A DNA stretch of 64,000 nucleotides from Tricharina praecox (Eukaryota), in assembly GCF_024521635.1 (NCBI RefSeq), contig NW_026250427.1:248001-312000 (forward strand). The letters run 5' to 3'. The notes beneath the pieces are model-generated. The model made no database searches, had not been told where the DNA came from, and was given only the letters and a program-made list of their open reading frames with translations. The position numbers were made by a program, and so were the translations under genes. Position 1 is the first letter of the stretch; every line of letters begins with the position of its first letter. This document shows, one piece after another, positions 1,282 to 60,800 of the stretch.

Positions 1282-3127
1282 ATGGCCGCCAAGCTGCTTC
1301 GGCGGCTGCTCAGCCTCTCTATTTTCCTCTTGATCCTTGGATCTTTCTTTTTCTGCTTCACCCTCGCAGATCAGATCGTCCCTCGTGCTGACTCCCCTCA
1401 CGTCCCTGTCACCACTCACTTGCCTAGCTTCCATGGATACCCTTTCCCAAAATCTAGGCACGGTTCAGACGTCAAACAAAAAACCCCGCCTTTCCCGATT
1501 AACCAGATTGTGCTCTACGTCTGCGGCGTCATCTTCGTGACCAGCGGGATAGTCCTACGTTTTGTCTCCTACAGAGGCGACCAAGAGGACGACGTCGAGG
1601 TACTCAGGTCACGTAAGATTGGCGACTGGGCTGTCTGCATCGCCTTTGTGTTGTATCTCACCGTGACCGGCCTCCAGTTCTTCCTCCTCACGGAAGGGTA
1701 TAAACTGGCGGACCGCATCGATCCGGTGTATGGTGCGCACTTTGGCGTGAGTGTGGACGTGCGCGTGCGGAAAGGGAAGGTGAGATATTTGGACCGGTTG
1801 AGATCGAAGAAATATCGTTGCTGATCGGTTTGTTAATAGATCTTGTATGTGTCAAGGATCCTCTACTCCGTGGTCGTCTACGCCACCAAGATTCCCTACC
1901 TGGCGCACTACTCATCGGTGCGCCATGTGAGTAATCCGCGCTACAACTACTTGCTCCGGGTCCTGGGGGTCGCGACCCTGGTCGGCTTTTTCGTCGCCAT
2001 TTTCACATCTATGTTCACCTGTGGTCGTCCGAGCAACAGCTGGTGGGTGACCGTTTGTGTGTGCCTCCAAGTGATAACGCATGATTGACAAGCATGTGCA
2101 GGGCTCTGGGACGCTACGAGATGTGCAATCCGTTCTTGAATATATGGAGTAAGTACACCGTAGCCATGAATATTTTTGGTGAGAGGAATGACTAATTTTA
2201 CCAGTACTGATGGCCAACTCAATCCTCAACCTCTCCACGCAGACGCTGAGTACGTCCTCCTCAAGTCCCTTTCCCCTCGAACTACCACTAACCCCATTAG
2301 TCCTCCTCTATCCTCTCCAAACGGCGGTAGATATGCAAAGCAGCAGCATCCTGCTCCGGACCAAAGCTCTCTTCATCTTCTTCCTCTACGGGATGTGGCC
2401 ATTGGTCACCGGATACGTGCGCGTGTTCATAATCCTTTTCTACATCGATGTCAATACCGGCGCCCCGCTCACCTCTCCCACCTCCCTCACCGCTATGGCC
2501 ACGGAGTCCGACATGGCCGCGCTGATCGTCACCGCTTCGATTCCGCAGTACCGCATACTTTGGAGGAAGGTTACGACCGCGGACGGCATATTGACCATCT
2601 GGTGGTATTGGTGTTTCTCAATCGACCGTAGGTGGAGGAAGGTGCTGCTGTGCGGCCAGCAGCCGACGAGACGGATTCATCCGCCCTGGATTCGCAAGAA
2701 GAAGGCAAAGAAGAATCTCCGGCCGGGTGCGTTCAATCTGGATCTCGGAAGCTTCGAGTTCAACTATCCAGCCGGTACCGTGCGTGGAAGTGTCGAAAAT
2801 GTTGCTGCAACTGCTACCGCTACCGGTTCTTCGGACGTCGCCGCTGCTCCTGCCGCTTCTGCTGCTGCTGCTGCTTTTGCTTCTCCCATGACCACCAGTG
2901 AAAGTGGCGCGGCCTGGAGCCAGCCCGCTGAGGCGTTCGAGTTGTCTGATTTGGGCACGGGCGTTGATGCCACCGGCGGCAACTATGGCACCAGAAACAG
3001 GAGCAGCTACAGCAATGCTACTGGCGGCTTACACCACAGGAACCGTAGCATCGCCGGGAGTTCCACGATAACAAGAACAACGGCAGAAACTAGCGCCGGA
3101 ACCATTTCGGCTCCCTTTCTCCGGTAG
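1282..3127 (+). CDS. Multi-pass membrane protein, fungal rhodopsin-domain (PTH11/SAT4-like), spliced
   Basis: ATG at 1282 with a signal-like hydrophobic N-terminus. Hydrophobic helices continue across ORFs 1135-1824, 1843-2088 and 2210-3127, joined by GT-AG introns (e.g. 1780-1839). Pattern LRF..GDW, YxxxxYATK, C..P..W, ASIP.YR; Ser/Ala-rich C-tail. Inner exon boundaries are approximate. Confidence 0.7.
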
Positions 3128-5425: not shown

Positions 5426-5850
5426 TAAACTGTACCTTGTACCTCCCCGGAGGTCATCTGATGGTCCATGTCGCTTCTCCGCCACGGCAACCGCAGAGAG
5501 GCTGGAGGGGAGGCGTCAGGTGTACTGTAGTTCTGCTGCGGTCTGGATTTTGCGGATTGTAGCCAGGTTGTTCTAGGCTCGCAGATCATATGGTGGTTAT
5601 GTAGGCTCGAGGAGGAGGAGGAGGAGGAGGAGGAGGAGGAGGATAATGAGGATGAGTATTGTTTACAGTAGGTGAGGGTTGGCAGATTTCTCAAGCGCGT
5701 CCGGGCAGCACCAGCATAAGAGTGGCTTCTCGATGTATCTATTGCGGGAAATACGATTAAAGAGAAGAGGAACTTCTGTCGCGGTTGCCATTACCGGTAT
5801 CCTCGGCGATGGAAAACTTGGACCTGTCCATGACTGCTTTATAACGCCGC

Positions 5851-5977
5851 GCCACATCGCGCTGGCTGGTAACGGGGTCTCGAACCCCCGGCCGGCCACA
5901 GTGAGCAGGAAAGGAGTGCGACAGTTCGCCATAGTCTAGATAGGCTGCATGCGAAATAAACTGAAAATCTCTCTCTT
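5851..5977 (+). mobile_element. Retroposon 3'-tail module T (LINE 3'UTR-like) ending in (CT)n
   Basis: gccacatcg...gttcgccatagtctagataggctgcatgcgaaataaac...ctctct. Homologous segments at 7289-7464(-), 8455-8511(-), 53163-53248(+) and 55005-55035(+). Resembles the LINE 3' end at 31285-31406. Confidence 0.65.
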
Positions 5978-6062
5978 TCTCGTCGGGCGTCATAACAAAT
6001 TACATCCGCAACATGTACTCTACAGCTACTCTACAGGACCCACCCGCGCGCCAGACCCATTG

Positions 6063-6459
6063 GCTCTCCTTTCTTCGCCCTCTCGCATAGCAGCCAGAGA
6101 AGCACTGAAAAAAAACAGGGGATCCAGTCAGAACATCTGCAGCTGAGCGCCCAGACCCAAATTCCAAAAAGTAAGCAAACAGTACCTAACCAACACATAG
6201 AGATACTCTCATCCCCAATCGACCCGCTGTGACTCGGTGAATCACAGAGGAATCGAAATGAGCGATGACCTGATATGTGTGTTGACCTGGTATGTTCACC
6301 GATGATGGTGGGGAGAAAAGAGAGAGGAGAGAGTGGGGGAGGAGAGAGAGGGTTTTATAGGTGTTGTGGGAGTTCTTGGAATCAAAATTTCGCCCCCGCA
6401 TGAGCGGTCACTCGTCGTCGCTAGCCCTAGGCACTAGCGTCACTGGCGGCAACACCAGG
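6063..6459 (+). mobile_element. Dispersed non-coding element R, copy 1 (truncated)
   Basis: Aligns by eye with 6775-7276 (inverted), 44728-45121 (inverted), 52954-53147 and 55151-55692. Strand is the putative retroposon sense; the TATA/hairpin cassette reads on the opposite strand. Confidence 0.85.
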
Positions 6460-6774
6460 AAAAATTGAGGAAAGCTCCACCAGACCTGGAGGAGGATGAG
6501 GAGGAGGAAAGCATCGCATCGGGACCTAACAAGGGTGCCCAGCAGGGTAATGCGTCTGCGGCCGGTGCGAGGAAGTAAGAAATGAGGATATGCAGTGATA
6601 TGTTCTTGGTGTGATTTTCTATGTTATTTTTTTGGCTGGCAGCGGCCCATCCAGCGGCGTAACCGGCGTTGCAGTTTCTTGGTTCTTTAACCTACCTACG
6701 CTGTGTACAGCTCTACCACTATGGCCCGTTACTGCGCCGCTGCCTACCACCGGATTTCACAAAGGAAAAACTTT

Positions 6775-7276
6775 CCTGGTGTTGCCGCCTGTGACGCTAG
6801 TTCTTAGGGCTAGCAACGCCGAGTGACCGACTATGCTTCTGCGAAATCGAGAACCCGCCAACACCTATAAAAGCCTCCCTCCCCTCCCCAACTGTCTCCT
6901 TTCTCCTTATCATCTGCGAACATACCAGGCCAACACACATATCAGGTCATCGCTTATTTCGATTCCTCTACGATTCAGTGATTCGCAGCGGGTCGATTGC
7001 GATGAGAGTATCTCTATGTGTTGGTCTGGTACTGTTTGCTTACTTTTTGGAATTGGGGTCTGGGCGCTCAGCTGCAGATGTTCTGACTGGATCCCCTGTT
7101 TTTTTTCATTGCTTCTCTGGCTGCTATGCGAGAGGGCGAGGAAAGGAGAGCAGGTTGGTGCAGTGCTTGGGCGGCTCATGTTGAGTACTTAGTTGCATCC
7201 AATCTAGAACTCGTGGAAGCAATGAGTTCAATACTGGTTCCCTATTGCTCTCTGCCCAGCCCTCCCCGAGCGTCAA
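6775..7276 (-). mobile_element. Dispersed non-coding element R, copy 2 (near full length)
   Basis: Reverse-complement homolog of 55151-55692. Flanked by direct repeat cctggtgttg at 6775-6784 and 7278-7287. Confidence 0.85.
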
Positions 7277-7288
7277 CCCTGGTGTTGA

Positions 7289-7464
7289 GAGAGAGAGAGA
7301 TCTTCCTGTTTGATTTCGCATGCAGCCTATCTATACTATGGCGAACCCACGACCTCCGTTACTTGTCCGCCCTGGCCAGTCAAGGTGAAAGCCCCGGTAC
7401 CGACCAGTCCGATGCGGCACCCCACTTCCCCTGCCCACCCGCCTCGGGCCGACACAAGCAAAAT
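7289..7464 (-). mobile_element. 5'-truncated retroposon tail module T with 12-bp target-site duplication
   Basis: (GA)n tail at 7287-7300 on +. Perfect direct repeat ccctggtgttga at 7277-7288 and 7465-7476. Confidence 0.75.
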
Positions 7465-8454
7465 CCCTGGTGTTGATTTTCCTTACCGCCTGCTAGGCTT
7501 TGAGAGCGAATCTCTGGCCTGGGCCGGGAGCATCGTAGCTTATTCTCTTCATAGCTGTTTGTGAGTCCGTGAAATTAACCGAATCACCCACCTACTGTCC
7601 AACTGTCCATTTACTGTGTCCCATAAACCCAAATACGGTATCTCTGCGTATTGAGTATCGAACGGCAGCCCAAGGGCCAATGCAACCACAAATAGTACCA
7701 GCAAGCCGGCTTCTTTTTGGGCAGAAACGTACCTAGCCCAAAGCAACTGTGGCACACCATGTACTCTGCGTGACCTTTTGTGCAGCGTAGTCTGGTGTGA
7801 TCTACTCCGCAATACGATACGATACGAAACCAGCCCTGTCATCCGTGCGAGGTGGGGCCCACTAGGTGCACGTATCGCATGGTTAGCTCCGTGGATCACT
7901 CGGGTATGTCGGATCGCAAAAGCTTACACGAGCTATATGATACGAGTTTAGGAGTAACACTCTAGCCGTAGTGCTAAGTATTTCCTTCGTTTACCGTAAA
8001 TGGAATACGGGGCGGGGCGATTTCCACCGTGCCGTATTCCTCGAGGTACCGATGATACGGGTGGAAGACGAGGTCAGACGGCACGTGCCGAGGCCGAGAA
8101 CAAGCATACAGCAGCAACAACCGCGCACGTAAGCTATACGAGGGGATATACCGAGCCCTGCCCCGGGTGAGAATCGAGATGCTGGCTGACGCCGATTCGG
8201 GACCTTCCGCGGGTTTGCCCGCTGCCCTGCGTTCAGACGCACTGCATACATATCGCTGTGCATCTCCTGCGAGGATTTGTCATTTCTCTGCAGAATGCGC
8301 ACTGCGCGGGATCTATGACGGGCACTGGGCGGAATCGATACCCGTGGTGACGTGTCCTACCTAGGTACACCGTTGAACCCGATTTGACCCTATTTCCACG
8401 GCCAACGGAGCCCTCCTCTATGATATTTGGCTGCGATGTTGTTGCACTGGCTAT

Positions 8455-8511
8455 GAGAGAGACAAAGATCTTCAGTTTATTTCGCATGTAGCCTATATAG
8501 ACTATAGCGAA
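8455..8511 (-). mobile_element. Short fragment of tail module T
   Basis: gagagagac..gatcttcagtttatttcgcatgtagcctatatagactatagcgaa is the reverse complement of the 5925-5977 module. Confidence 0.65.
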
Positions 8512-24229: not shown

Positions 24230-24673
24230 GCGGCTACCAGGCTGTACATATGCTGGCGGCGATATTATGTATATAAAAATAGGGCGTGAATGAATGAACG
24301 ATCACGAAAGCTTAGCGGACGCATCATTGATTTTTCTAAGTACTTACTCAATCACACACCATGCAGTATCACCCCTCGAAGGCGGAAGAAGGGGTGAAAC
24401 GAACCCGAACTGTGCCGCGGCTTCGGTCGGAGGTCGCGGGAGCGGGGACCGGCGGTCTGTTGTCTCTACAGGCTAGACACTGTATGACGGAAGTAGAAGA
24501 AAAAAGGCCTCATAGTGTAAATCTTACTTAGGAACCTATATAGCGTCTCTTGTCCACTCTTCATCATATTCTGTTCGAACCGATACAACGTGATGTAGAT
24601 CCAGCGCGAGCGTATCACTGTGGCATCACGTCTTGTCTCCCGAGTCCCGTCCGCACTCCAACCACACCAGGAC

Positions 24674-24715
24674 CTCCTTGCCCTCTCGCATAGCCAACAA
24701 AACAATGGAAATGAA
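24674..24715 (+). repeat. Short fragment of element R
   Basis: ctccttgccctctcgcatagcc..caatg matches 6063-6110; preceded by cacaccagg. Confidence 0.5.
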
Positions 24716-25360
24716 AGGCCACAATATCTCTATGGGAACTCAGCCGGAAACCTGCAATTGGGGACTCGACCCCCTAGTTCAAGAGTTACACAAACACAAC
24801 CATACAATAGACGGCGATCTCCCCAACCCCAGATGGGCCGACTGTGAATCGGTGAAGCGCTGAAGAGAAGAAGTGAAACGTGAGCCGGCTTGAGTGACGA
24901 TCCGATATCTTCTGGAAGATGAAGGTAGACCGCATACTGAGATGTTTAGAATTGGAGGAAAAAATGAAAATAAAATCGCCGCTTCATAACGTATCACACG
25001 GATTTTAGAGTTTTGCTGAGGAAAGGTGGATTGTGCAATTCACGAAATGATGCTATTATACTCCCCAGCCTTGGAGTTCTGCTGCAAGTTAAAGTCCGCA
25101 ATAATTGAAACTTTGTGACGAGTGCTCCTCAGTCTCGTATTTTCTTACTATGTCGACTGCTACTATTACCACTACCTCTCCGGTTGATTTCGCGAGAAAC
25201 CGAAGTCATAGGAGAGATGGACCCGGAGCGAAGGACTCGACGAGAAATGGTGGTCATGTAATTCTAGAAGTAAATACAGGTCTGCATCGCAGTATCGCAC
25301 TCCGTATGAATTTCTGGATTTGAACATATTTTATGCCACCCTAAGCTGTACTTACTACTT

Positions 25361-30379: not shown

Positions 30380-31406
30380 GAAGTACGCCATCCAGGCTGG
30401 AAGGGATATGCCGGAGGGAGCCCGAGATCACCATCGAAATTTGATGGTGCCCGACTCGCAAAGGTATCTCTGGTATCGAAAAGGCCGACGAATGGAACGA
30501 GCTAGCAGCCGAGGCCCGACAACCCCATCGCCAGCGGAGTGGAGGCTCCCAGTTATCTCAGCCAGTACGGGAGTAGACTACTGTGGCAACCGTCGCACCT
30601 CTACCTGGAAGCGTGGGATTACGGAGGCTAACAGGAAAGAGACCACGGCATGGACCGACGCGAAAGCCGGAAACCTTGCGAGAAACCGGACCCGATCCCC
30701 AAACGCTTGAGCTTGAGGTTCTACCAGCCGAAAACTGGGTATTGCCACACCGGCCAGTACCACCAGTCGACGAAGAGCCGCTCCGACGCTCGGTGCGGAT
30801 GGTGTCGTTACAAGACCCAAGCCCAGGAGCACCTCTCCAAATACTGCCCGAATGGAAGAGCCAGCAGAAGAACATGTGGGCAGAGGTTCGGAAGGAGACA
30901 GGGAGAGGCAAGGATCGCTTCAAGAGCCACGACCTCATCAGAGGTGCAGCCAGACTATCCTGAAGTTCCTCGTCACCACTGATGTGGTCAGGCGGATCTC
31001 GGAGGTTACGGAGGACGATCTAGCAGGTGAGGTATCTGCACGGAAGCTCAGTGAGTGGGAAGAAAGGCAGGCAGGGTAGGGGTAAGAGGAGGAGGAGAAG
31101 GGTGCTTAAGTTGAGGAACAGGGGCCACTCCCGGTATTTCTTCCCACACCCTCCTTCATGGCATCTCCTGATGAAGAGGTAGGAACTGGACGGTATGAGG
31201 AGTGGATTTTCTTTTTCCTGGTTCATTTCCATGGTGAGCTCTAGATGTAGCTATCTTGGGGAAAGGCCAGGGCGTAGGGTATGAGAAGCCGCATCGGGCC
31301 GCTTTACCATGGTAAGGTAGACCGTAGGGACAGTGGACATAAGAGCGGTGTGTATATTGCGACGATCTAGCTAAGTTGCAAGCAATTAATGATTAAACAA
31401 ACAAAG
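30380..31406 (+). mobile_element. Decayed 5'-truncated Tad1-like LINE (RNase H C-terminus, CCHC knuckle, 3'UTR)
   Basis: Broken frames give KYAIQA, PEITIEI*WCPTRKGISGIEKADEW (RNase H), RFYQPKTGYCHTGQY..CGWC...EHL..YCPEWK.QQK.MWAEVRKETG and FLPTPSFMAS. Ends gcaattaatgattaaacaaacaaa. Confidence 0.85.
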
Positions 31407-32394: not shown

Positions 32395-32662
32395 TGATGG
32401 TTGTGGTTGTGGTTGTGGTTGTGTTTGTGGTAGTGTTTGTGGTAGTGTTTGTGGTAGTGGTTGTGGTCGTATGGAGGAGGAGGAGGACAAGGAGGAGGAC
32501 AAGGAGGAGGACGAGGAGGACAAGGAGGAGGACGAGGAGGACGAGGAGGAGGAGGAGGAGGAGGACGAGGAAGAGGAAGAGGAAGAGGAGGAAGAGGAAG
32601 AGGAAGAGGAAGAGGAGGGAGAGGAAGAGGAAGAGGAAGAGGAAGAGCAAGAGGAAGAGGAG
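32395..32662. repeat. Compound microsatellite: (GTGGTT)/(GTGTTTGTGGTA)n then (GAG/GAC/GAA)n
   Basis: Directly visible low-complexity tract. Confidence 0.9.
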
Positions 32663-34686
32663 TAGAAGGATGAAGTTGGGCGAGGTTTTTCAATATCGGA
32701 CCATGACCGTCGACGACATCATGCACACGATGGCTGGAAACGAGTTACGCCGTGTTGAACAGCTCGGCGTGCGTTTTGGGCGATTGCTGAAGAACATGGC
32801 GCAGGTGTTTCAATAGTCCGCCTTCCCGTCCCATCGGTGCCCGGCCGTCATTTCGTGCGGTCCATCGTGGTCAACGATTTGATAGGACTGCTTTAGTAGA
32901 ACGGGCCATGACTGGTCGAGGTAAAGGTCCCGCTTGAAGGAAGGTGTGGCTTATGTAGTGATGGAGAATCGGGGTATATTTTGATTCCGGGCACAGACTC
33001 TGCAGCCCGAGAATTACTGAGGTCTGCGGGAGTTCCCCAGGGCGTCAGGCCATCGGATCATAGCCGACCAACAGAGAATGCTATTTCGATCTAAAAATTG
33101 ATAGTTTCCCCCAACGTAATACTGCAAGAGATCTGTTAGATACGCCGATCGAGTTCGGAAAGTGACTATATCTTTTCCAGGATGTGGAGGAGGAGAGAAG
33201 TGACATGGAAAAGGGAAAGGAGCAGCAGGATGGCGGAAGTAGCTCCTGGTTTTCATAATCATAGCATACTACATACATTATATGTCTTTATCTCTATTAA
33301 TATCCCTACAACCCACAAAGCGCGAAAACCTTAAATCCACGACTCTCAACTTCTCAAGACTCCGCACCCCTGCCGCACACTAACTAAAGCTCATGTTACC
33401 CACAGACCAAAATGCCCACAAACGATCGACCGTCGTCATCGACCGACGGATAAAGAAATGGGCGAGACCACGGATCAATTAGCTAAGTATGTACAAGGTA
33501 GTTCAGCAGTCCAGGACTCCTCCCTCCGATGGCATCGCGAACAGCCTTGATGGGCCGCCAACATCCAGTCTGGAAGTACGGAGACCGTGCGGAGGGCCGG
33601 CGGTAGTGGAGTACGGTGCCTACTGAGGTAGCGACGGTTGTCTCCACCGGACCCGGGATGGGTGCGACCAGATTCTGCAAATTGAACGATTTTCAATTTT
33701 CGTGAGGCATCGTACACAGACTCCCGAAGATCTAGGTAGTGGCTGGATCTGGCTCCATCTTATATATGTTCCTTCTCACCACGGCACTTTGCTGCGATAT
33801 CCTCACCGGCATGCGACTGATCGGAGAAGGATGCTAGCCCAGCCGGACCACCATTGAGGCTAGTCGAGTGATAATACGTGAATATCCCGCCATCCAACAC
33901 AGAGCGGGAGCGGGAGCCGGAGTCGGACCCAGCACTCCATCACCGATTCCGCGCAGCAAAGAAGTATTAGAATTCGCGTTCATAGAAAGCCGTTGACAAA
34001 TTAAACCTCGCAATGCGACGAACTGACGCGTTACGATCCGCTCAGTACCCCCACTTCGCCATCCGGTGTGCGATGAAACCGTTATGACCCACCGTAATCT
34101 AATCACACCGTACACATGATGCTGAGCCGCGTTTTACCGCTCAGCTAAAGTCCCTATATACCTGCTGTTGGTATGAGCCCCGCTGTATATGTACGTACAT
34201 TATACATATAGGTACGATCTGTTCGGCGTTCGCCCCCTGAGTCCTGACACTTTCTCCGTTGGTTCAAGCCGTGTTGATGATGGGCGCCTGCTCGATGCTC
34301 GCTTGATTAAAGAATGTCAGCTGCACAGCTTGTGGGTACTGGTATATTCATCGACACTTCGCTCTCCAAACATACTGCGGGCATACTAGCAGATACCCGG
34401 AGCATGATTACGTTTTATCCTTATCGTTTAAATCACTAACTAAAAGGGACGTACCACAAAATATTCCAGCCACAAAGAAACACTACCACCCCACATGAAT
34501 TTCATTCCTGCAGTATTCCCTCCCGGGTAGCAGCCCTTGAATCTATCATCGAAACAGACCAAGCGATTGCCACGATGACAAAACTGGGAATCACAAAACC
34601 TAACGCCACCCAAACTCCAAGGCTTAAGATCCGATATATCACCTGAAGTGATTAGTAAATACTGATTTCTATTCGTTTGGAAGTGC

Positions 34687-37600
34687 TCACCCGATTGGAA
34701 CAGAGGCAGAATCAAATTTCAAGAATGAAACGATACCGGAGACACCTCCGAGGGCGATGGTGTTGTTTCGCACGGCAAAACAGCGAGTTTGGTAATTAGG
34801 GGGGAGTAAAAATATCCTACGTGCTCCTAGGAAAATCCAGCCATTACTGACATAAAACAAAGCCATTGTGTAAGGGTTTCCCCCTGCATTGACTGCCTGG
34901 ATTACATCATGCGTATCAACATCCCTGAGCTGGACGGTTCCGTCGTATGATATTAATTGCAGCACCGTGCCATCCGGCGAGAAAGCTACTGCGTTGACCC
35001 AGTCCGAATGGCCCTCAAGAGTGCCACAACAGGTCCCCGTCACTGGATCCCAGAGCCGGACGGTTTTGTCCAACGACCCCGATGCGATGAGCCTGCCATC
35101 AGGCGAGAAAGCCACTGCGGTGACACTGCCCGAATGGCCCTCAAGAGTGCCACAACAGGTCCCCGTCACTGGATCCCAGAGCCGGACGGTTTTGTCCAAC
35201 GACCCCGATGCGATGAGCCTGCCATCAGGCGAGAAAGCCACTTCGTTGACCCAGCTCGAATGGCCCTCAAGAGTGCCACAACAGGTCCCCGTCACTGGAT
35301 CCCAGAGCCGGACGGTTTTGTCGTCCGACCCCGATGCGATGAGCCTGCTATCAGGCGAGAAAGCTACTGCGTTGACCCAGTCCGAATGGCCCTCAAGAGT
35401 GCCACAACAGGTCCCCGTGACTGGATCCCAGAGCCGGACGGTTTTGTCCAACGACCCCGATGCGATGAGCCTGCCATCAGGCGAGAAAGCCACTGCGGTG
35501 ACACTGCCCGAATGGCCCTCAAGAGTGCCACAACAGGTCCCCGTCACTGGATCCCAGAGCCGGACGGTTTTGTCCAACGACCACGATGCGATGAGCCTGC
35601 CATCAGGCGAGAAAGCCACTTCGTTGACCCAGCTCGAATGGCCCTCAAGAGTGCCACAACAGGTCCCCGTCACTGGATCCCAGAGCCGGACGGTTTTGTC
35701 CAACGACCCCGATGCGATGAGCCTGCCATCAGGCGAGAAAGCCACTGCGTTGACCCAGTCCGAATGGCCCTCAAGAGTGCCACAACAGGTCCCCGTCACT
35801 GGATCCCAGAGCCGGACGGTTTTGTCCAACGACCCCGATGCGATGAGCCTGCCATCAGGCGAGAAAGCCACTGCGGTGACACTGCCCGAATGGCCCTCAA
35901 GAGTGCCACAACAGGTCCCCGTCACTGGATCCCAGAGCCGGACGGTTTTGTCCAACGACCCCGATGCGATGAGCCTGCCATCAGGCGAGAAAGCCACTTC
36001 GTTGACACTGCCCGAATGGCCCTCAAGAGTGCCACAACAGGTCCCCGTCACTGGATCCCAGAGCCGGACGGTTTTGTCCAACGACCCCGATGCGATGAGC
36101 CTGCCATCAGGCGAGAAAGCCACTGCGGTGACACTGCCCGAATGGCCCTCAAGAGTGCCACAACAGGTCCCCGTCACTGGATCCCAGAGCCGGACGGTTT
36201 TGTCCAACGACCCCGATGCGATGAGCCTGCCATCAGGCGAGAAAGCCACTTCGTTGACCCAGCTCGAATGGCCCTCAAGAGTGCCACAACAGGTCCCCGT
36301 CACTGGATCCCAGAGCCGGACGGTTTTGTCGTCCGACCCCGATGCGATGAGCCTGCTATCAGGCGAGAAAGCTACTGCGTTGACCCAGTCCGAATGGCCC
36401 TCAAGAGTGCCACAACAGGTCCCCGTCACTGGATCCCAGAGCCGGACGGTTTTGTCGCGCGACCCCGATGCGATGAGCCTGCCATCAGGCGAGAAAGCCA
36501 CTGCGCCGACCCCGTCCGAATGACCACAGAGCACTTGCAACGCTGTCGGGTCCCAAACGTTGGGAACCATTGGCTGTTGTGTGATCCAGGCGGGGACACA
36601 ATTCGAATAATGTTCCTTGAGTGTGCTTTTCTTTGGGCTGAGCGTCAGAGCAGAGCAATATACTTGCAGAGGTGCGATCGCGATGATCGATCCGAAAGTG
36701 AGCACGAAGCGCACCGCATCACTAGCCATTGCACGTAGATGATAATCGGCGTCGGACTTCAGTCGACGTCAGCAAGACTATCCGTGAAAGACGCACCCAT
36801 CTAAAGTTCCGGAGAGGAAATCGGCCTGTGCTGAGAGGCTAGCCCTTTCCAAAGCGAACGGGTATCGTGCGTATTGCAACTTGGCTTGCCTGTACTAGGC
36901 GCATCTCGCCGGGGAAAAAAAACAAGCTCGGAGTTTTCGGAGCACTCACCGGCAGCATGGAAGCCAAAGTGCGGACAATGAGAATTCCGTTGGAGATATT
37001 TCCCATTAGGCTAAGAGCCTCGAGCCAATGGAGGAAGTTTTCGTTCAGAAAATTGTGGACTAGCTTATGCAGTGATTTGGAATCGCCGTCACGGAGTTCG
37101 ACGTTACTTTGCTGGAGATGATCGAACCAAAACCGGCACGCATATTGAACCTCTTGGGGAAGGAAATGATTTACCGCAGAACGATCCACTTCGATTGTGA
37201 GGCTACCCGGAAGTTTTAGAGAACATATATCCTGCTTAAGACGTCTTGACATCAAATCGAGACAGCTCGCCGCAAGATGCGCGTGTGCATCGCCGCTAGC
37301 TATGTGGAACTGCTGATCAGTGCATCTCTGGTTGTTCAATAGAAAGTCACGGAATGACAGATGTAAAAGCGTGATGGGAACACTGTCGCTTTCGGAACCA
37401 TACTGCAATACAGAACCCAGAGACCGCAACGTCTGCTTCACTTTCCACAGTTTAGCGGACAAGAGCCCAGCAAGAGCATCAGCAGTCAAGGCGTCGAAAA
37501 GGATCACAATAGATCCAATAATCCTTTTGAATCGCCTTAAGAGTTCCGGTTTCTTCTCTGGCTCGCGACCTTCGACCACTGCGCTTATTAAGAGAGTGGT

Positions 37601-39110
37601 ATACATCGAATTGAGTTGTTGCGTTGACGATCCGTGCTCCATAGTTTCGTCACTCAACACGGAAGTGAGACGTTCTTCCGGGTCTTCGTCGATGTCCCCG
37701 ATGAAGCGGCACACCGTTGCAGCATAGATGAATAGTCCTCCTGCTTTCCGAACGAGATTATCCAGGCTTGGTTTGTCCGGCCACCCCTCGGGTAGGTCAC
37801 AATTCATCCGGATGGTGTCGAACTCGTGTCGGAGGAACGTGGATATGTCGGGATTGACGGACTCGGGGTTTTCGTGAAGGATGATCTCTCGATAGGCAGT
37901 GCTCTCTATACCGCTGAGACGGAAGCGAATCGCAATTGGCGGTCTGCTGGTTACGAAAACCCTCAGCCGCACGGGGCCGAGGGCTTTTGCCTGAGAAAGC
38001 AGTTGAAGGAGCAGTTCGGTATCTTTCTCCCCGGCGCACTCGTCCAACGCATCGACGACTAGTAATAATGATTGAGGTGGTACATCATTCAGCTGAGAGA
38101 GTGGTTGACTGATGAGATTTTTCCACTGCTCTTTAAGGTTTTGTTTGAGGATATCGGGGTTGTCGCATATAGCCTTGCTTATGTGAGCGGCAAGGCCGGA
38201 GACATCGTGGGACCGCGCACGTGCCAGCTGGTAGGCGAGGGTGGAGAGGAATTTCGAAGCGTTGGCCAGATCACCCCGACCTTTCGTAAAGAAGAAGCTT
38301 GCCCCAAGTCTCCTCTCGAGGTCCCACTTGTGAGCAACCGTACGCGCAATGGTGGACTTTCCGGTGCCAGCCATGCCATTCAACCAGAAGATGCATGCAT
38401 CGTCGGGATTATCCGACCAGCGCATAATGTCGTTAAGGAGGTCTACTCGGGTGTCGTTTAGGCATGTAGGCTCGTGTTCCAATCGGCGCGAGTTGAAGGC
38501 GGCACCGTCGGCGCAGTGCGCTTCGGCTTTTACCGCAACCGTAAATCAGCTATGGAGAATCACATTGGAGCGGCTTCCTCTAACTCACCAAACTTCTCCA
38601 AGGCTCCTTGGGTTTGCGTGTAGTGGATCGTCGTATTTCCTCCTAGAAAAAGACGATGTGAGTTAGCCAAGTATTGCTCCGCCGTCAAAGAAGAGGTTGG
38701 CGAACCAAGCCCTACAGGCCCATCGAATTTTACGTGCTGGAATTCGTTGTGCTTCGAGTGCTCATATATACGAGAGTTGTTCGTGCTGATTGTTGTCGTG
38801 TTGACTCTATGGCTATCGATTGTGCTGCTGCTGCGACTGTCGGTTGCTCGGGCGATGGGAATCAGTAAGCTGCTTGGGCCAATATCGGGGCTATCTAGCT
38901 CCTCCAGCGGCTATGTAGATCTGAGTTAGGCAGCCTCCAACTCTCAGTGGTATCCGGAAGGGCGGTACTGACCGTCACGCGTGGTCTACCGCCGCTGCGG
39001 AGCGTTTCCCGCTCGTCCCTGAGTGGATCTGGCTGCGCATTGCGTGGTCGGCCCGACGGCTCCTCCGGTGACCGATCTCGCTTTCCTAGTACACTCCGAA
39101 GAGGAGTCAT
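34687..39110 (-). CDS. Fungal NLR: NACHT-WD40 (NWD/HNWD-like), 5 exons 39110-38973, 38910-38706, 38642-38589, 38526-36950, 36756-34687; about 1347 aa
   Basis: AAFNS..CL..TR pre-NACHT motif, P-loop GMAGTGKS, Walker B VVDALDEC, VTSRP, GGLFIYA, HLSFRDFL, HWLEALSL and PLQVYCSAL, then 12 full plus 1 partial WD40 repeats. Four GT-AG introns with CTRAY branch points keep one open frame (4044 nt). Confidence 0.93.
34975..36525 (-). repeat. Intragenic tandem array of 126-bp near-identical WD40 units
   Basis: gagaaagc recurs every 126 nt from 34979 to 36491 (13 occurrences). Confidence 0.97.
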
Positions 39111-43884: not shown

Positions 43885-44727
43885 TGGATGAGCTATCCGA
43901 GTTTACTCTATATGTCTCCCGATGAGTCCATGGATGCCATTTGGTACTTATTGATGTGGTTGGCGAAATTTAAAACATTGTGCCAGATGATCTCCACATG
44001 CAAATTAGTGACCAGCTGTCCACAAGGGGCTTAACGATGGTGAGATGACGGTTTCGAGTATCGAATCGGATATTCCTTCTATAGTGATGATCTTCCGAAG
44101 CTTGTCCGGAACCTTGTGAAATACGATACTACCGCGAGCGGAAATGCGAAGTCCAGCAATCGCAATGACTCACTCCCCATGGTCCTCGACCGTCACATCT
44201 AAGAACTGACTCGGTTATTGCTTTAAGGGCCTTGTCAGAGAGATGAACCATACTACCTATTATCCTATCCTTTCCCATGCGCCCTACGCGCCCTGCAGCG
44301 AGCCGTGGTACTCTAGAGACCCGGCGACAGTACAGTCGCTGCGGCGCCGCCGCGTCCCCAGGAAACGAAAGAGCGAAGCCACTTCTATACACATCTCGAC
44401 GCCACCCACCGGTTCAGTTTTTGCAGGCGGCTCTTTTGCCAACACCCCCTCTAGGCTAGAGGGGGGATCGAGAGGAGAGCACACACAGACGAAAGAGAAT
44501 ATATCAAGCTTGATCGTCTATTCGGTAGAAGATGATTGAGAAAGAAGACGAAGATGAAGAAGAAAGCTGGGAAAGAAAATTCCGTTCCTCACCCCGCCGC
44601 GCCTCCTGCCTCTTCGACAGGAGATGCCACGAACGAAGCTGTGGGAAGGAGTAGCGGGAGTGGTTCTGGCTCCTCAACCTCAGCACCCTCCTCCCCCTCT
44701 TGCCTCAGTCCCACTACTGGGTGTTTT

Positions 44728-45121
44728 CTGGCGTTGCCGCCTGTGACGCTAGTGCTTATCGCTAACAAGCCGAGTGACCGATGATGCGGCGGCGAAATTT
44801 CGATTTCAAGAACTCCTGGAACACCTATAAAACCCTCGCTCCCTCCCACACTCTCTCCTCTCTCCTTTTCTTCCATCATCATCGGCGAACATACCAGGTC
44901 AACCCACATATCAGGTCATCGCTCATTTCGATTCCTCTGCGATTCATCGAGTCACAGCGGGTCGATTGGGGGTGAGAGTATCTCTGTGTGTTGGTCTGGT
45001 ACTGTTTGCTTACTTTTTGGAACTGGGGTCTGGGCGCTCGGCTGCAGATGTTCTGACTGGATCCCCCTGTTTTTTTATTGCCTCTCTGGCTGCTATGCGA
45101 GAGGGCGAGGAAAGGAGAGCC
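44728..45121 (-). mobile_element. Dispersed non-coding element R, copy 3
   Basis: Same orientation as and closely similar to 6775-7150. Confidence 0.85.
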
Positions 45122-46748
45122 GGTGGACCGTGGGACTGGTCCGCTGGGGGTCCTGTCGAGAAGCTATATACCCTCGTAGCCCCCTCGTAATCAGAGAAAA
45201 GTTGAACAGCTGGGATGCCCGGTGCCGAACGGGTTCATCGGGGCCGGGGGCGATCAGAGTTTGCAGCTGCAACTGCAGCTTTGGTATCAACATTCACCTC
45301 GTCAGAAACCCCAGGCCTGAAAACACAGCTCCATACAACCCGAAAAGGCCCTCAGTTACCGACGCAATCTGTTATGACGCCCGACGCCCGACGACTGGCT
45401 ACATACCTATCTACATCCTACCTAGAGAACTGAAAACCAGCCGAGTGCGGATGCATGATCCGTCCCCCCAAAAAACCAATTTCAATTCTCAGAACTCCTG
45501 CAGGCTGCAACGCATATATGAGAGGGCGAGAGAGCGAGGAAGCGTAGGTACCTGTGTAGTCGGGAGCTGGGGGTCACTCTTGCTTGAACTTTGAAGTTCC
45601 GGCCCTCCATTGATCCACCTCGCTACTGCGCTGCGTAGAAGTAAACACAAAGAAGAATAGAAGTAAAACAGAAACAAAGGATTGGGTTGGATGTCTGTGT
45701 ATACAAGGATCCGCTTTCTCGCCCAGGAACCAGTGAGGTCAGGTGACAGGTCTCGGAATTGGACCTAGGTACTCAAGTTCTAAGAAGCAGGTAACTTAAA
45801 TGAGATGGAACCCCCCCACCCCCGGTGAAGACTTACTTCCGAATTTCCAAATCATATCATCGAGTCCTTCATCTCCCGATGTCCGGTCGGAACCACAGTG
45901 CATCTCCGGAAGATCCCATCAGTGCGCGTCACCAGACATCACTCGACAGCACGTGAGTCTTTACGTCACAACGCCACAACGCCACGGCCACCAGAGTGGA
46001 TCACTACTAGGTATCATACGTGGAGACCAAATGCACATCTAACGGCGAATGGGACTTTTGTTCGTTCGTCTGTTTCCCAGTTTCCCAGGTTCCCACGCAT
46101 CATCTGTCTGCAAGCAGCTACGGTATGGATCAACGTGAGCGATATACGAGTGGCCAGTGGCCAGGACGAGTCGGAGTTGTGAGTGGACATGAATCCTGAT
46201 TCGTTGCATTTCATTCACAGAGTCTTTATTTATTATTCGTCATCCATAACAGACATTATTCGTTCGTTCATTCGTTCATTCGTTTCATTCGTTGATTCGT
46301 GCAGCCATGATCCCACGGTCCACCGCGATCCCACGGTACCCTCCCACCCTCGCGACACGGTCTTGTAAATTTCTGATGCATGGTCAGCACGCTGTTCGCG
46401 ATGGAAAAGAGGAGCGATGGGGTGTACCATAGTAGTGATAGTAATACTAGCAAAGTATTCTGTGATGCTCATATTCCCCCGAGTCCAAACCACGTATCGA
46501 CATTGACAAATCAATGGATAATCGTGTCCTACGGTCTGGCGAGCAGAAGTGTGAGTGCGCGGGCAAGGAAGGGACAGAGACGGGGTATAAGTCGGCATGT
46601 ATGTATAAGTGTACACACGTACCTTTCTCACGATCCGTCCGTCCCGCCAGCACTGTTCCCCGCGCACGGCCAGCAATAATTCCGGGCAGCCTTGAAAGAG
46701 AGCGAAGGCATCGGCCCATCTGCGTGATATTCCATCGGCGACTACGCG

Positions 46749-52953: not shown

Positions 52954-53147
52954 ATGAGCGATGACCTCATATGTGTGTTGACCTAGTATGTTCGCTGATG
53001 ATGATAAGAAGAAAAGAAAGAGGAGAGTGGGGGAGGGGAGCGAGGGTTTTATAGGTGTTCCAGGAGATCTTGCAATCAAAATTTCGCCTCCGCATGGTTG
53101 GTCACTCGGCTCGCTAGCCCTAAGCACTAGCATCACAGGCGGCAACA
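52954..53147 (+). mobile_element. Dispersed non-coding element R, copy 4 (truncated)
   Basis: Matches 6258-6453; followed almost immediately by module T at 53163-53248. Confidence 0.8.
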
Positions 53148-53162
53148 GACAACCGGGAAACG

Positions 53163-53248
53163 GCGCCACATCGTGCTGGCTGGTAACGGGGTCTCAACCC
53201 CCGGCTCGCCAGAGTGGGCAGGAAATGTGATGGTTCGCCATAGTCTAA
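53163..53248 (+). mobile_element. Tail module T fragment
   Basis: gccacatcgtgctggctggtaacggggtctc..gttcgccatagtcta matches 5851-5938. Confidence 0.75.
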
Positions 53249-53763
53249 ATACCTACCATAGCGAGCCGTGTACTAATGTCGTTAGCCTTATGTGGGGCTT
53301 GAATAGGCCTACAAAATAAAACAATCCTCGTATAATCCAGCTATAAGCACGTTGAACTCGTGAGACCTCAGTAAGGGCTGTGTTAAACTAAGGCTAGTGT
53401 TCTCATTTCCCTAAAAATGTCGTAACTCCTACATAATGCCTATGCAGCAACAACCTCCATCACCTAAATCGGCCTTGTCACTTTGTAAGCCCCATAGCTT
53501 TCGTCAGGCCTATATCGTCATTGTTGAAATGCACAGCACTGCCGTACAACAATGACTGTAAAACTGGCAGGCTTTTTGAAGCATTATGGGATATATCAGC
53601 CCGGGACAGAAAACCCAGTATGATGTAAGCGTTCAATGAGCCTTATTCAAACCCATGGGTTCTACCACTCTTGTGAGTTAGTAGTGCATATGCGAAAATC
53701 AGCCTGGTTGACACCGGCGGCGGCGGGTCGAGAGGAGAGAGAGCGGAGGTGGGAGGTTGAACG

Positions 53764-54460: not shown

Positions 54461-55004
54461 CATCCTGTCACTGCCAGACCGGTATCCAAGGCGAGGGGCA
54501 GTAGGGGGGCACAGTATGGTGAGTAGGAGACTGACAAGCGGGGAAGAAGAGTAGTTTAGGTATATAAGGGTACGGAACAAGCGATAGTCATCGTCAAATG
54601 AAGAGCATTGATAAGTGATAAGTATGACATTGGGATGAGGCTTCTCGCAGAAGAGCGATTATGGAAACCTTTTGGGCGTATAAGCCTTACTAATCCTTAT
54701 TTTTTCAAAATTCCCTACAGAGCCCATATGGAACCCTTATGAGCTTCCAAGGTGGGCCGGCCAGTAGTGGTTGCAGAAGGCTTACGAGTCGGGACTGATT
54801 TTCACTGCACTCAGGATTGTGGAAGCCGTATTCAACAAAAAGAGCGGGAATTTGAAAACCCTGACTAAGCCTTAATTTACGACAAGACTTTTGGGGATGA
54901 AATACTAATATTAGTATTTTTTCGTCAAGAGTATTGTGCCAAAATCGCCCTCATGTATAGCTGCCATAATGTTTTTGACTTTAGTACACGGCTCGATATG
55001 GTAC

Positions 55005-55130
55005 ATAGGCTGCATGCGAAATAAACTGAGGATCGATCTCAACCGTCGAAACAGGGGGGTTGACGTGTAGACATTGCCATGATCTAGACAGGTCACATGT
55101 AATTATTGAATAAACCAGAAAACAAACAAA
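55005..55130 (+). mobile_element. Two stacked retroposon tail fragments
   Basis: taggctgcatgcgaaataaactga (module T), then gccatgatctagacaggtcacatg...taaaccagaaaacaaacaaa (LINE tail type). Confidence 0.65.
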
Positions 55131-55150
55131 TGGCAACACGCTTCAGTGGG

Positions 55151-55692
55151 AAGAGAGGGTTGACGGGCGGAGAGGGTTGAGCGGACAGCAGTAGGGATTC
55201 AGGAACCGGTATCGAGCTCATTGCTTCCGCGAGTTCTAGAGATGCAGCTACTCGATAAGACTCACTCTCGCCCCAGCCCCCCCCCCAGCCTCCGCCTGCT
55301 CTCTCTTCTTTCTTCGCCCTCTCGCATAGCAGCCAGAGAAGCAATGAAAGAAAAAAAGTGGGGGATCCAGTCAGAACATCTGCAGCTGAGCGCCCAGACC
55401 CCAGTTCCAAAAGAGTAAGCAAACAGTACCAGACCAACACAGAGATACTCTCATCCCCAATCGACCCGCTGTGACTCGGTGAATCACAGAGGAATCGAAA
55501 TGAGCGATGACCTGATATGTGTTGACCTGGTATGCTCGCCGCTAAGGATAGGGAGAGAAGAGAGAGGAGAGAGTGGGGGAGGGAGCTGGGGTTTTATAGG
55601 TGTTGGAGGGGTTCTTGAAATCAAAATTTCGCCGCTACATAGTCGGTCACTCGGCGTGTTAGCCCTAAGCACTCGCGTCACTGGCGGCAACA
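55151..55692 (+). mobile_element. Dispersed non-coding element R, copy 5 (apparently full length)
   Basis: Homologous along its length to the reverse complement of 6775-7276. Flanked by ggcaacacgcNNcagtggg at about 55132-55150 and 55686-55703. Confidence 0.85.
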
Positions 55693-55715
55693 CGCGCCAG
55701 TGGGTATTGAGCGGG

Positions 55716-55890
55716 TAAGGCTGGGTGGAGAGCAATAGGGAACCGATATCGAGCTTGCGGTCAGCGGTCGGTGGCAGCCGGGTGGATACTGATATGTCAT
55801 CTGCCATGATGATTAAACAAAACCAAAACATGCACCAGTAGGAGGAAACCGCCATGATCTAACAAGGTCGAATGCAATCAAACAACCCAG
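55716..55890 (+). mobile_element. Further LINE-3'UTR/tail fragments
   Basis: ggctgggtggagagcaatagggaacc (shared with the distal end of R), gccatgatgattaaacaaaacc and gccatgatctaacaaggtcgaatgcaatcaaacaa. Confidence 0.55.
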
Positions 55891-57757: not shown

Positions 57758-57833
57758 CTCCTCCTCCTCCTCCTCCTCCTCCTCCTCCTTCTGCTTCTTC
57801 TTCTTCTTCTTCTTCTTCTTCTTCTTCTTCTTC
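57758..57833. repeat. (CTC)n(TTC)n microsatellite
   Basis: Directly visible. Confidence 0.9.
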
Positions 57834-60800
57834 TTTCTAGATCATCGTCTATCAAATAGACCGCCAACCCCCATCTCCGCTCTCGCCTCTGTGTGCGCTT
57901 CCTTTCTCTTCAGGCCTGGAGAGTAATTGGCAAAGAGCCCTCGCAATACCACCTGTGCCCACCCAGCCAGCAGGTGAAACAGCCAGCACACCGCGGCTCC
58001 ACGACCCCGCCGTCTTTCAAGCGTCAGTTACTATCGTCTCCCCCACCGGCAAGCTTCTCGGAGGCCCAGTATCCGCTCGAAGACGACGGATACAGCTTTC
58101 GAATATCACTCGGCTGCTGGGGCGTTACCGCGAGGACGGAGTGGCACGGTGGCACCCGGCACCAGCATTCCCCGAGACCCCCGATATGCGATGTACCGTA
58201 AGATACGACTAGCTTGGCTGCGAAGGTCACCACCTGCGGCATCTGCCGTTGAGGCGTTCTTGCGAGCTGCAGATATTTGCCGGCCATACGCAGCCCGCGG
58301 CTTCGATCTATGTATGTCTGCACTGGGTCATCACGGCTGCTGAAGGTACGTACGGAGCCTTAGCTTGCCGGCACGACCGTAGCAACGAAAGACAGCGAAG
58401 AGTGCGAAGAGTGTGAGGATGTGATCGGTGATCGGGAGGGAGAGAATCGTCTGGTCGGTAGGGAGGAGTACTAGTAGAAGTGTGAGCTGTGCGAGTGCGT
58501 CTCTGTACTTATGTGATTTCCACTGTTGCCCCCGTTCACCGGAACTACCACTACCCCGTGTTACAGAGAATACTAACATGCTATAGTAGTTTCGCTCTTC
58601 GCATACTCCATAATTAGCTATGATACCCTCCCACATACCGGTACTACATACCGGTCCTTCATACTACACAGCCACCGTTCCGCCGTTCGATCGGCCCGGT
58701 TTGGCATAAGCCAACAAACGAGTGCGAAAGTGTGAGTGAGCCGGCACACACCATCCCGCCGCACCCCGCCCCACCGCACCCCATTTACTCTGCGTCCGCT
58801 CCGGTGGGTATCACCTGACCCATACCACCCAAACTGCGACTGTTTGCAGGGGGTGTCTTCGTCCGGCTCGCCACTGAACAGCCAATTGCACAACTGATGA
58901 CTGACGACTGACGACGGACGGACGGCGGACGGGGCTCGATCTCGGTGACTCGGTGACTCGGCGACTCGGTGTGGTGTTGTGTGGTGTCGTGTTGGGGCTC
59001 ACATGCCCGTGCCGTCGACGACGGGCTGGGCTGGGTTGGAACCTTTTTCTTTTCCTTTTCTCGGCAGGTCTCGAACTTGGGGGTGAGGTATTTGAGGGTG
59101 CTGACACATATCACATCATACATGTACGGTACATACCGTACATACCGTATCCGTCAGTCTAGGTATATCTATCTATCTATCGCTGCCCCGCTGATTACTC
59201 TACACGAATCACGAGCAGCAGCGTCGGATGCAAATAAGAAGCCCCATTCCTCCTCGGTGGGGCCTGAATCCGAACGAAAAATAAAATAGACTAGGGTGTG
59301 TGTGAGAAGAAGAAGAAGAGAAAGAAGAAGCTGAGCGCATCTAGATGTTCCCGTCGCGATTAGTATTGTGGTTTGGGAGGGGGCAGATGCAGTGATGCAC
59401 ACTTGGCGATCGGAACGGATTGTTTGGAAGGAGCAACCGAGGGGCATCAAGTAGAGTACTCTAGAGTACCTACCTAACCATCAGGGGGGGAAGAAATGAC
59501 TCGGTATCTTCTTCTTTGCCCATCCATTTGATCAGAGGATCAAACGGTTGCTAGGGCGTAACTATGTCTGTATGTATGCACACGATCTTCACTGACAGAC
59601 AGACAGCTTCCGCACGCGGGTAAAAAAAGACCTCAACTCAACTCGGCAGGAACCCCCGGGTACGATCGGGGCCCCGACGACATCATCATTGGAGCTTGGG
59701 CCTGAGGATGAGGGGGAGGGGTAATTTCCGTCACGCACGGCCGGCCGGTTCGATTCCCCCATCCCGCCCTGGGGCCTTGGAGCCTGCAAACGAGGCGTCG
59801 CCCATCGCCTGTCGCCCGGTATTTCCGTCCGGCAGGCACAGTTGAGATCCAATCGAACGAACGAACGCTGCTGCTGCCATGGCGCACACACACCGAGCGA
59901 GGCAGAACGCAGACGACGATGGAAACCTGTTGGCGCCCGTCGCGTCCCGCGTCCCGCGTCCGCATGTATGGATGCAGAGTACGGGGGCTGCATAGTGGTC
60001 GTCGAGAGGAAAGCGCGCGATCAGTGGTGCTGTCGCATGAACGAAACCTATAGAAACTATAGCAACTACAGCCTGTGTATCGCAACTAGGGCGTTGTCCG
60101 CAAACAGGCAGGCAGGCAGGCAAGCCGCAGGCTGCCTTCCGCACGGCCGGGTACGAGAGGATCGAACATCGAACGCCTTTTTGATTATTATTATTATTTT
60201 ATTATTTTGGACCACACGGCGCACGCGCGACATGAGTGTCACATCCACCATCATCCATGGGTGTACTCATGGCTGTCTGTAGTTATGGAGTTATGTATGC
60301 AGAAACGGGACCTGGTGTTTGCGTTTCATTTCACCGGGACACAATCAAAATCCTGGAGTACATACCGGTATCATCAGTCGAAAGCGGAGTGTTGGGAGTA
60401 CTGGGGGAGGGGCACGGCGAGAGCTGAATTGCACGCACCCAGCTGCCCAGCTGCCAGGAAGCTCAGGTACGCAAGCCCACGCAACGCATGTCGATACGGC
60501 ACGGTATGTGCCACTCCACTCCACTCCACTCCACTAACTCCGAGGTAACCGCACCGACCAGGATCGGAGGGGACGATGCGGCTTCATGTGTTCCTGAGGT
60601 TTTCGGTTGGACTACCAATCGATCGCTGTGGATGGAATGCTTCGTTCGGGTATGATAGGTGGACGTGAGATGGAGATGCACGACGACGGGCTGGAAGCCC
60701 TCTTCTTCTTCTCTCTGCAAAGATCTCAGGCATGAACTGGTGCAGTTGGGGTTCGACCGCGCGCTTACCTACTTTACTAGTACTATACCCTCCAGAGTCC

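Follow-up and report, generated by a model that had tools for sequence, protein, structure and literature searches.

Solo long terminal repeats (LTRs) of fungal Ty3/gypsy and Ty1/copia elements, including those of crapaud in Podospora, are non-coding units of a few hundred base pairs that start with TG and carry a TATA-type promoter and a transcribed region, and they occur as dispersed single units nested with other repeats; in crapaud (PMC10787394), differences between the LTRs are concentrated in U3 while R and U5 are kept. The repeat that we describe in this study, hereafter called E, resembles them in these respects, with a putative promoter and transcribed part and with TG at the 5' end of four of its five copies. 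Unlike the LTRs of such elements, E was not seen as a pair around an internal region, its 3' ends are non-CA and specific to subfamilies, and it forms partial dimers; unlike crapaud, E has its subfamily-specific variable part at the 3' end and not in U3. Podospora repa/crapaud was considered as a relative of E and dropped, as there is no sequence relation and the host belongs to the Pezizales. Hairpins in the R leader of retroviruses and LTR elements, such as HIV-1 TAR, provide another point of comparison: the hairpin of E likewise lies at the expected transcript start and is favoured on the sense strand, but E has a rod of ~110 nt, much longer than TAR, and its role is putative. In the 5' UTR of mouse L1, promoter monomers follow one another head to tail and the first of them is truncated, which resembles E at copy c5, but the E unit measures about 0.5 kb compared with about 0.2 kb and is not followed by a LINE ORF; to our knowledge, no head-to-tail promoter monomers of the mouse L1 kind are known in fungi. 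Finally, in snRNA genes of the Sm class (U1, U2, U4, U5) the TATA box comes before a structured body, which is followed by a single-stranded, U-rich site and then by a stem-loop, and E has its features in the same order. The original prediction for this locus had proposed a mobile structured RNA gene or a SINE and had named, as the alternative, a solo LTR whose R region is TAR-like.

E is a non-coding repeat of 0.44-0.66 kb that is present in five copies (c1-c5) and as a sixth relic (c6) in the window, the 64-kb stretch of DNA analysed here (Table 1). BLASTN searches of positions 6700-7500 against the window, and of the window against itself, recovered c1-c5, and an nhmmer profile built from these copies found c6 (E = 2.7e-13), which confirmed that the five copies and the fragment at 24674 listed originally are real. 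The five copies are 78-89% identical in pairwise comparison and c6 is far more divergent. All E copies known here lie within 50 kb, in both orientations and between unrelated genes, and their flanks are unrelated to one another beyond a neighbouring repeat, X, which is described below. Copy c1 is inverted relative to c2, with their heads ~320 bp apart, and in c3 ~186 extra bases (45169-45354) precede the common 32-nt tail at 45355-45386. The predicted absence of a conserved ORF was borne out by three-frame translations of four copies, which are full of stops and in which indels shift the frames; as a translated frame of E also had no match in a collection of 5.8 billion proteins, we rejected a conserved ORF in E. 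We likewise rejected a signature of RIP: transversions make up most of the singleton changes in the promoter part, and there is no excess of C>T/G>A. A scan of 139 ORFs of the window (12 of the 54 of at least 150 aa, together with 127 of the 160 of at least 100 aa outside four known genes) detected no reverse transcriptase, integrase, gag or transposase domain, so that every E copy in the window is 'solo' with respect to the scanned ORFs. Our literature search returned nothing specific on SINEs or solo LTRs of Pezizomycetes, and comparison with Rfam and with the literature sets E apart as what appears to be a new family.

Table 1. Positions of the E copies, of the parts of copy c2 and of the X copies in the window
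Feature	Position	Strand	Remarks
E copy c1	5982..6455 (BLASTN 6462->6027)	-	subfamily 'b', tail ...TGTTATGACGCCCGAC
E copy c2 (copy of the original prediction)	6780..7277 (BLASTN 6772-7280)	+	subfamily 'a', tail ...GCGTCAAC
E copy c3	44732..45396 (BLASTN 44724-45168)	+	subfamily 'b'
E copy c4	52954..53147 (BLASTN 53147->52954)	-	truncated within the rod's 5' arm
E copy c5	55691->55152 (BLASTN 55693->55156) within 55132..55770	-	subfamily 'a'
E copy c6, old relic	24651..24928 (nhmmer 24928->24675)	-	TATA box lost, no hairpin fold
TATAAAA of c2	6866..6872	+	E position 87-93; AACACCTATAAAA invariant in c1-c5
CT-rich tract of c2	6873-6912	+	directly after the TATA box
Rod hairpin of c2	6915..7040	+	inner part 6923-7031 matches the original description; ~110 nt
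Conserved core of E (in c2)	6920..7151 (alignment columns 151-395)	+	87-98% identical between copies
X (SINE-like), directly 3' of c2	7289..7464 (nhmmer 7283-7484)	+	profile match and direct repeats
X directly 3' of c1	5773..5987	-	same orientation as c1; nhmmer
X directly 5' of c4	53149..53296	-	same orientation as c4; abuts the c4 head; nhmmer
X core ~110 nt 3' of c5	54993..55040	-	same orientation as c5; nhmmer
X copy away from any E	8456-8511		nhmmer

Alignment of the five copies revealed a sharp common 5' end at TGTTGCCGCC (c3: CGTTGCCGCC), upstream of which the sequences differ between copies, and the 5' terminus is TG (TGTTG) in four of the five and CG in c3. Sensitive pairwise comparison separated two subfamilies that differ in their 3' ends, both of them sharp: ...GTCAAC in subfamily 'a' (c2, c5) and ...GACGCCCGAC, with the last bases ...CCCGAC, in subfamily 'b' (c1, c3); beyond the purine block GCGAGAGGGCGAGGAAAGGAGAG the two cannot be aligned with each other. 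The bases CTGG immediately precede the head of E in c1, c2 and c3. A 10-nt direct repeat, CCTGGTGTTG, lies on either side of copy c2 (6775-6784 and 7278-7287); c2 is bordered by CCTGG and c3 by (T/A)CTGG, and no target duplication is present at c1 or c5. Target duplications of LTR elements are typically 5 bp long, the length of CCTGG. The CCTGG at c2 may be element sequence and not a target duplication, because it is part of the longer CCTGGTGTTG, which includes the first five bases of E, and because CTGG also precedes c1 and c3. Indeed, c2 is followed by these first five bases (TGTTG), preceded by the same CCTGG as at its own head. Two further junctions have CAATA or TAACA as the tail of E, near the usual TGTTG...CAACA ends. 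Terminal inverted repeats in E are at chance level, with shuffles doing as well in 190 out of 1000 cases for c2 and in 600-999 out of 1000 for the others. The stretch at c5 consists of ~1.17 units head to tail, with a partial E tail upstream at 55770->55709, and in one Logan contig the tail of an E is linked to the head of another, with 25 other letters between them. Copy c5 is the only one with direct repeats at both ends (within about 85-90 nt), one of 26 nt (81% identical) with a spacing of 554 bp and one of 17 nt (94% identical) with a spacing of 537 bp. Beyond the short repeats, a search for a further partial E head after c1, c2, c3 and c5 gave nothing significant. A candidate empty site, a 505-nt skip from 5981 to 6487, was dropped since its short side comprises only 22 nt and is purine-rich.

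The TATAAAA motif and the CT-rich tract had been noted correctly in c2, and the TATA box is invariant in all five copies, with the 5' end of E 87 nt upstream of it. The first ~150 alignment columns (head, TATA box and CT tract) are 62-88% identical between the four long copies, in contrast to the core that follows (Table 1). This core runs from the rod hairpin through a T5 run, a weak stem-loop and a T8 run to the purine-rich GCGAGAGGGCGAGGAAAGGAGAG. Copy-private substitutions relate to invariant columns as 23:206 in the core and as 28:89 upstream of it (Fisher p = 0.001), in a comparison of four copies with a star-like tree, in which decay after insertion is inseparable from evolution of a master lineage. 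The uneven conservation agrees with two readings: selection acting on the genomic copies, or a retroelement in which the promoter part varies and the leader is constrained. The T-run noted at 7099 is present in c2 (7099-7106), and conservation continues straight across it, which indicates that it is not the end of the functional unit. From these features of the sequence we infer a promoter and a transcript of E, both of which are putative.

We then analysed the ~110-nt rod hairpin, for which the minimum free energy of the E-sense strand is -42.1 to -59.7 kcal/mol in the four copies folded, with z = -3.2 to -6.8; none of the 200 shuffles folded as well in any of the four, and the hairpin is thus real as predicted. 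The complement of the rod also folds, with z = -2.6 to -8.5, yet in each of the four it is the less stable strand; the difference is 4.6 kcal/mol in c2 and 7-19 kcal/mol in c1, c3 and c5. The original assertion that the fold is confined to this strand is therefore only partly right: the sense strand is the stronger one in each copy, and the complement folds too. When each 5' arm was aligned to the reverse complement of its own 3' arm, transition mismatches between the arms gave 3-9 G.U wobble pairs per copy on the sense strand as against one A.C per copy; as the copies share ancestry, these counts amount to roughly one sample of about 6-8 versus 1. The sense-biased wobble pattern is suggestive, not strong, and strand-biased mutation in a transcribed unit could yield the same pattern. 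RNAalifold predicted 47 pairs for the five copies, only one of which shows a compensatory change (U-A has become C-G in c2, and c3 has the half-step C.A), and returned a covariation term of +6.12 kcal/mol, i.e., a penalty; the covariation proposed as a check on the rod does not extend beyond this one pair. In c6, many rod pairs are broken and the fold is no better than that of shuffles (z = +0.49). Such decay of the hairpin in c6, and a single compensatory change among 47 pairs, are to be expected if the copies are those of a mobile element and are dead. The other structures described in E fared less well. The ggggtc...gatcccc stem-loop is at shuffle level (z = -0.30; 72 of 200 shuffles as good) and does not hold up as a structure, and the small 5' hairpin folds modestly (z = -2.5) and is disrupted in c3 and c5. 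The Sm-site-like ACTTTTTGG does lie at 7042-7050 in c2 and is kept in c1-c3, but it is broken by an inserted C in c5 (ACTCTTTTGG) and lost in c6.

On the basis of these features, we lean tentatively towards E being a decayed, low-copy family derived from a transposable element and most likely representing the promoter-and-leader module of a retroelement, similar to a solo LTR. The first ~145 bases of E would then be a U3-like promoter, with the TATA box followed by the CT-rich tract, and the following conserved ~230-250 bases would be a transcribed R/U5-like leader, the RNA of which would start with the long rod hairpin; the sense-biased fold might reflect a role of this RNA in the life cycle of the parent element, in packaging, dimerisation or priming. 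We infer the retroelement origin of E from the occurrence of its six copies in both orientations, the sharp 5' end, the two tail subfamilies, the non-coding nature of the repeat, the position of the promoter-like part upstream of a conserved core, and the clustering of E with X, a mobile repeat that bears a 12-bp target duplication. Against a retroelement origin speak the 3' ends, which are non-CA and differ by subfamily, the chance-level terminal inverted repeats and the lack of a gag-pol or transposase flank among the scanned ORFs of the window; the head-to-tail arrangement at c5 and the tail-head junction in the Logan contig are unusual for solo LTRs, and selection on the genomic copies themselves could also explain why private substitutions are depleted in the core. 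Because a paired copy is lacking in the window, the 3' ends are divergent and non-canonical, the duplication is ambiguous and there are tandem junctions, we use the term solo-LTR-like as a comparison and not as a claim of membership. The solo LTR with a structured R region, originally offered as the alternative, fits E better than an snRNA gene or a SINE, and lacks the paired copy with gag-pol that would go with it. If E is such a solo-LTR-like relic, it would be a matter of routine repeat annotation for a Pezizales fungus, as well as a worked example of how the succession of TATA box, structured body, U-run and stem-loop can arise in a transposon leader without snRNA function. Of all the features of E, only the uneven conservation and the strand-biased wobble pairs merit follow-up.

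The repeat X lies within about 110 nt of four of the five E copies, 3' of c1, c2 and c5 and 5' of c4, and its orientation always matches that of E. X consists of a purine run, a very conserved ~57-nt head, a variable middle with indels and, in some copies, an A-rich tail; it contains TGGCGAAC, has neither terminal inverted repeats nor TG...CA ends, and is SINE-like by layout only. We rejected a tRNA origin of X, given that an exact B box is present in a single X copy, that the total of such matches is at chance level, that ARAGORN found no tRNA and that Rfam gave no tRNA match. A perfect 12-bp direct repeat, CCCTGGTGTTGA, borders the X copy beside c2 (7277-7288 and 7465-7476) and is the mark of a retroposon-type insertion; since this X has its own perfect target duplication, it inserted next to E at a later time. 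An 'X-E-X' arrangement was not established, as the X-like remnants seen by eye (upstream of c1, c2 and c3; downstream of c3 and c6) failed a shuffle test, in which 26 to 498 of 500 shuffles were as good. Homology between the tails of E and X was not significant. In two soil-metagenome runs, the summed contig depth, which is not a copy number, was ~100x that of unique flanks over the X head and ~1.5x over the E hairpin. This contrast fits X being abundant and E being rare, and the low depth over E means that few copies of it may exist beyond the window. A 20-mer of the X core was found in four short contigs of one public metagenome, which hold X and no E, and an exact 24-mer from the most conserved block of E gave no stretches in a metagenome scan.

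The proximity of the two repeats brings up a further reading, which we consider unlikely: E would belong, as internal part or as passenger, to a composite, non-autonomous element that resembles a TRIM and is formed with X or with short terminal repeats of its own. Such an element would be in keeping with the start of E, where TGG precedes TGTTGCCGCC as a would-be primer-binding site (TGG begins E in c1-c3, and the start reads TGGTGTTGCCGCC), and with the direct repeats close to both ends of c5, as well as with the constant orientation of X next to E. The exact 9-mer CTGGTGTTG also occurs only four times in the window, in each case at a junction of E or X. The (GA)n purine run before the X head would be a matching polypurine tract, but it is part of the abundant X core and is thus not a polypurine tract of E. 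Furthermore, X is statistically supported on only one side of each E copy, the X at c2 is a later insertion by its own target duplication, and X does not have the ends of a terminal repeat. The TATA box would be internal to a composite element and unable to regenerate terminal repeats.

A structured non-coding RNA gene family, in which a TATA box drives a hairpin RNA or microRNA-like precursor and which has spread by duplication or by hitch-hiking with X, is closer to what had been predicted and is, in our view, improbable. Searches with Rfam gave no match at the gathering score over the whole 64-kb window; with a threshold of E <= 10, the only matches between 5800 and 7600 were the VEGF IRES (E = 0.046) and mir-320 (E = 1.2), both at chance level and far below their own gathering scores, and the proposed Infernal check therefore links E to no known RNA family in Rfam. 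The snRNA-gene architecture finds no backing beyond the order of its parts: unlike the Sm-class genes, E has no Rfam match, its 3' stem-loop is insignificant, its Sm-like site, ACUUUUUGG, is altered in c5 and lost in c6, and both conservation and one contig continue past the T-run. The SINE proposed as another possibility fails likewise, as E has no A or B box, no A-rich tail (the tails end in ...GTCAAC or ...CCCGAC) and no tRNA or Rfam match. No B box with up to one mismatch to the consensus lies inside c1-c5, and c6 has one match with one mismatch; the window as a whole contains 17 such matches, with 16.5 expected by chance, and ARAGORN found no tRNA in it. Nor is the antisense promoter of the original prediction needed, since the stronger strand of the hairpin and the TATA box have the same direction.

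What does speak for an RNA gene is the core, which is conserved above its flanks and depleted of private substitutions, together with the invariant TATA box, the excess of G.U over A.C in the rod and the true compensatory pair in c2. E also has the stable sense-strand hairpin that is expected of a hairpin-RNA precursor, with z down to -6.8 and the sense strand the stronger in each of the four copies. Two small runs that we guessed to be RNA provided a further, weak hint. In these runs, exact contigs cover the cores of c1 and c2 at a depth of 2-7, compared with about 100-385 for exact matches to the neighbouring genes and 0 for some unique spacers; contigs of this kind cannot show the start, end or strand of a transcript, and neither the low depth over E nor its uncovered parts are evidence. 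The starts of three core contigs lie no more than 2 nt from the rod's 5' base, and one contig crosses the T8 run into X, a hint of weak transcription that would start some 55 nt 3' of the TATA box and pass the T-run. As conservation and this contig both cross the T8 run, a unit of ~190 nt ending at the T-run is not what is seen. Other observations that weigh against an RNA gene are the lack of an Rfam family, a positive covariation term with 46 of the 47 pairs uncompensated, the loss of both TATA box and fold in c6, the insignificant 3' stem-loop and the Sm-like site that is not kept in c5 and c6. In addition, the partial tandems fit a mobile element better than a gene, as does a sharp 5' end that precedes the TATA box by 87 nt, and the depth over E is far below that of the neighbouring genes in the same runs.

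A stricter version, in which the conserved core of ~230-250 nt is a working, TATA-driven gene for a strand-specific structured RNA with four to five paralogues, forming a mobile cassette together with X, seems to us slightly more doubtful still. Its RNA would start with the ~110-nt rod and might feed a small-RNA pathway or act as a long hairpin RNA. If true, E would be a rare mobile pol II non-coding RNA unit with its own promoter in fungi and a testable source of microRNA-like RNAs in Pezizomycetes. Least probable of all, and very unlikely, is that E is not mobile and represents remnants of local segmental or tandem duplications of a promoter-like intergenic segment in a repeat-rich region: the confinement of all known copies to 50 kb, the partial tandem at c5, the low summed contig depth over the hairpin and the lack of metagenome matches to the 24-mer would agree with this, but the copies lie in both orientations among unrelated genes with an identical 5' breakpoint in five out of five, their flanks are unrelated beyond X, and the two tail subfamilies point to an evolving lineage and not to a single duplication.

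The genes of the window, which is fungal, include those for a multicopper oxidase, a two-pore potassium channel and an M18 aminopeptidase, as well as a NACHT-WD40 gene. The multicopper oxidase ORF, by which the host is placed in the Pezizales, is most similar among named hits to proteins of Sphaerosporella brunnea (70%) and Trichophaea hybrida (68%), followed by those of Morchella, Geopyxis and Tuber, and two unnamed metagenome proteins are 82-87% identical to it.

Several copies of E, the non-coding element with the rod hairpin, adjoin a second and more abundant repeat, X, which comprises a purine run, a highly conserved head of about 57 nt (containing TTTATTTCGCATGCAGCCTAT) and a variable middle, with an A-rich tail in some copies only. 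The copy of X beside c2, the plus-strand E copy of the inverted c1/c2 pair, is enclosed by a perfect 12-bp target duplication. By its layout, we regard X as SINE-like.

Repeat X and the NACHT-WD40 gene in the window
Feature	Position	Strand
Repeat X	5773-5987	-
Repeat X, beside c2	7283-7484	+
Repeat X	8456-8511	+
Repeat X	53149-53296	-
Repeat X	54993-55040	-
NACHT (NPHP3_N) + WD40 gene	34690-38545	-

In two soil-metagenome runs, contigs over X had a summed depth roughly 100-fold that over unique flanks, depth not being equivalent to copy number. Four contigs of one public metagenome (L001-L004) also hold X, and in two of them (L001 and L002) it occurs as tandem pairs. In L003, about 650 bp separate an isolated X core and a fragment of a DDE_1 (pogo/Fot1-type) transposase (1720-2172, plus strand, E = 4e-10).

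Together with their X repeats, c1 and c2 form an imperfect palindrome of about 1.7 kb (5773-7484), from which long double-stranded RNA would be expected if the region were transcribed through. The two E arms share 83% identity across 436 bp and stand about 310 bp apart. The spacer between c1 and c2 (6467-6634) is itself repeated, with a summed contig depth 10-20 times that of unique flanks, again not a measure of copy number. Its plus strand resembles the last part of an ORF, with an acidic C terminus, then a stop and a 3' UTR, and similar sequence is found within 0.8-1.7-kb contigs of two runs that we guess to be RNA.

The 251-nt fold of c2 contains a third helix (7099-7152), in which the T8 run and the pyrimidine run are base-paired to GAGAGGGCGAGGAAAGGAGAG, the conserved purine block. 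Inside this block, 20 bases (7123-7142) are still matched in the oldest copy, c6, with 19/20 identical by BLAST.

The WD40 units of the NACHT gene form a 126-bp tandem array (34921-36525) with 94-97% identity from unit to unit. Arrays of near-identical WD40 units are known from HET-E/NWD-type genes of Podospora; the same pattern is seen here in a Pezizales fungus.

A 128-nt inverted repeat (31089-31214 and 44572-44699, 77% identity) has one copy directly upstream of c3, another plus-strand E copy. Short triplet-type simple repeats (5608-5656, 32473-32673 and 57758-57836) match one another on both strands.
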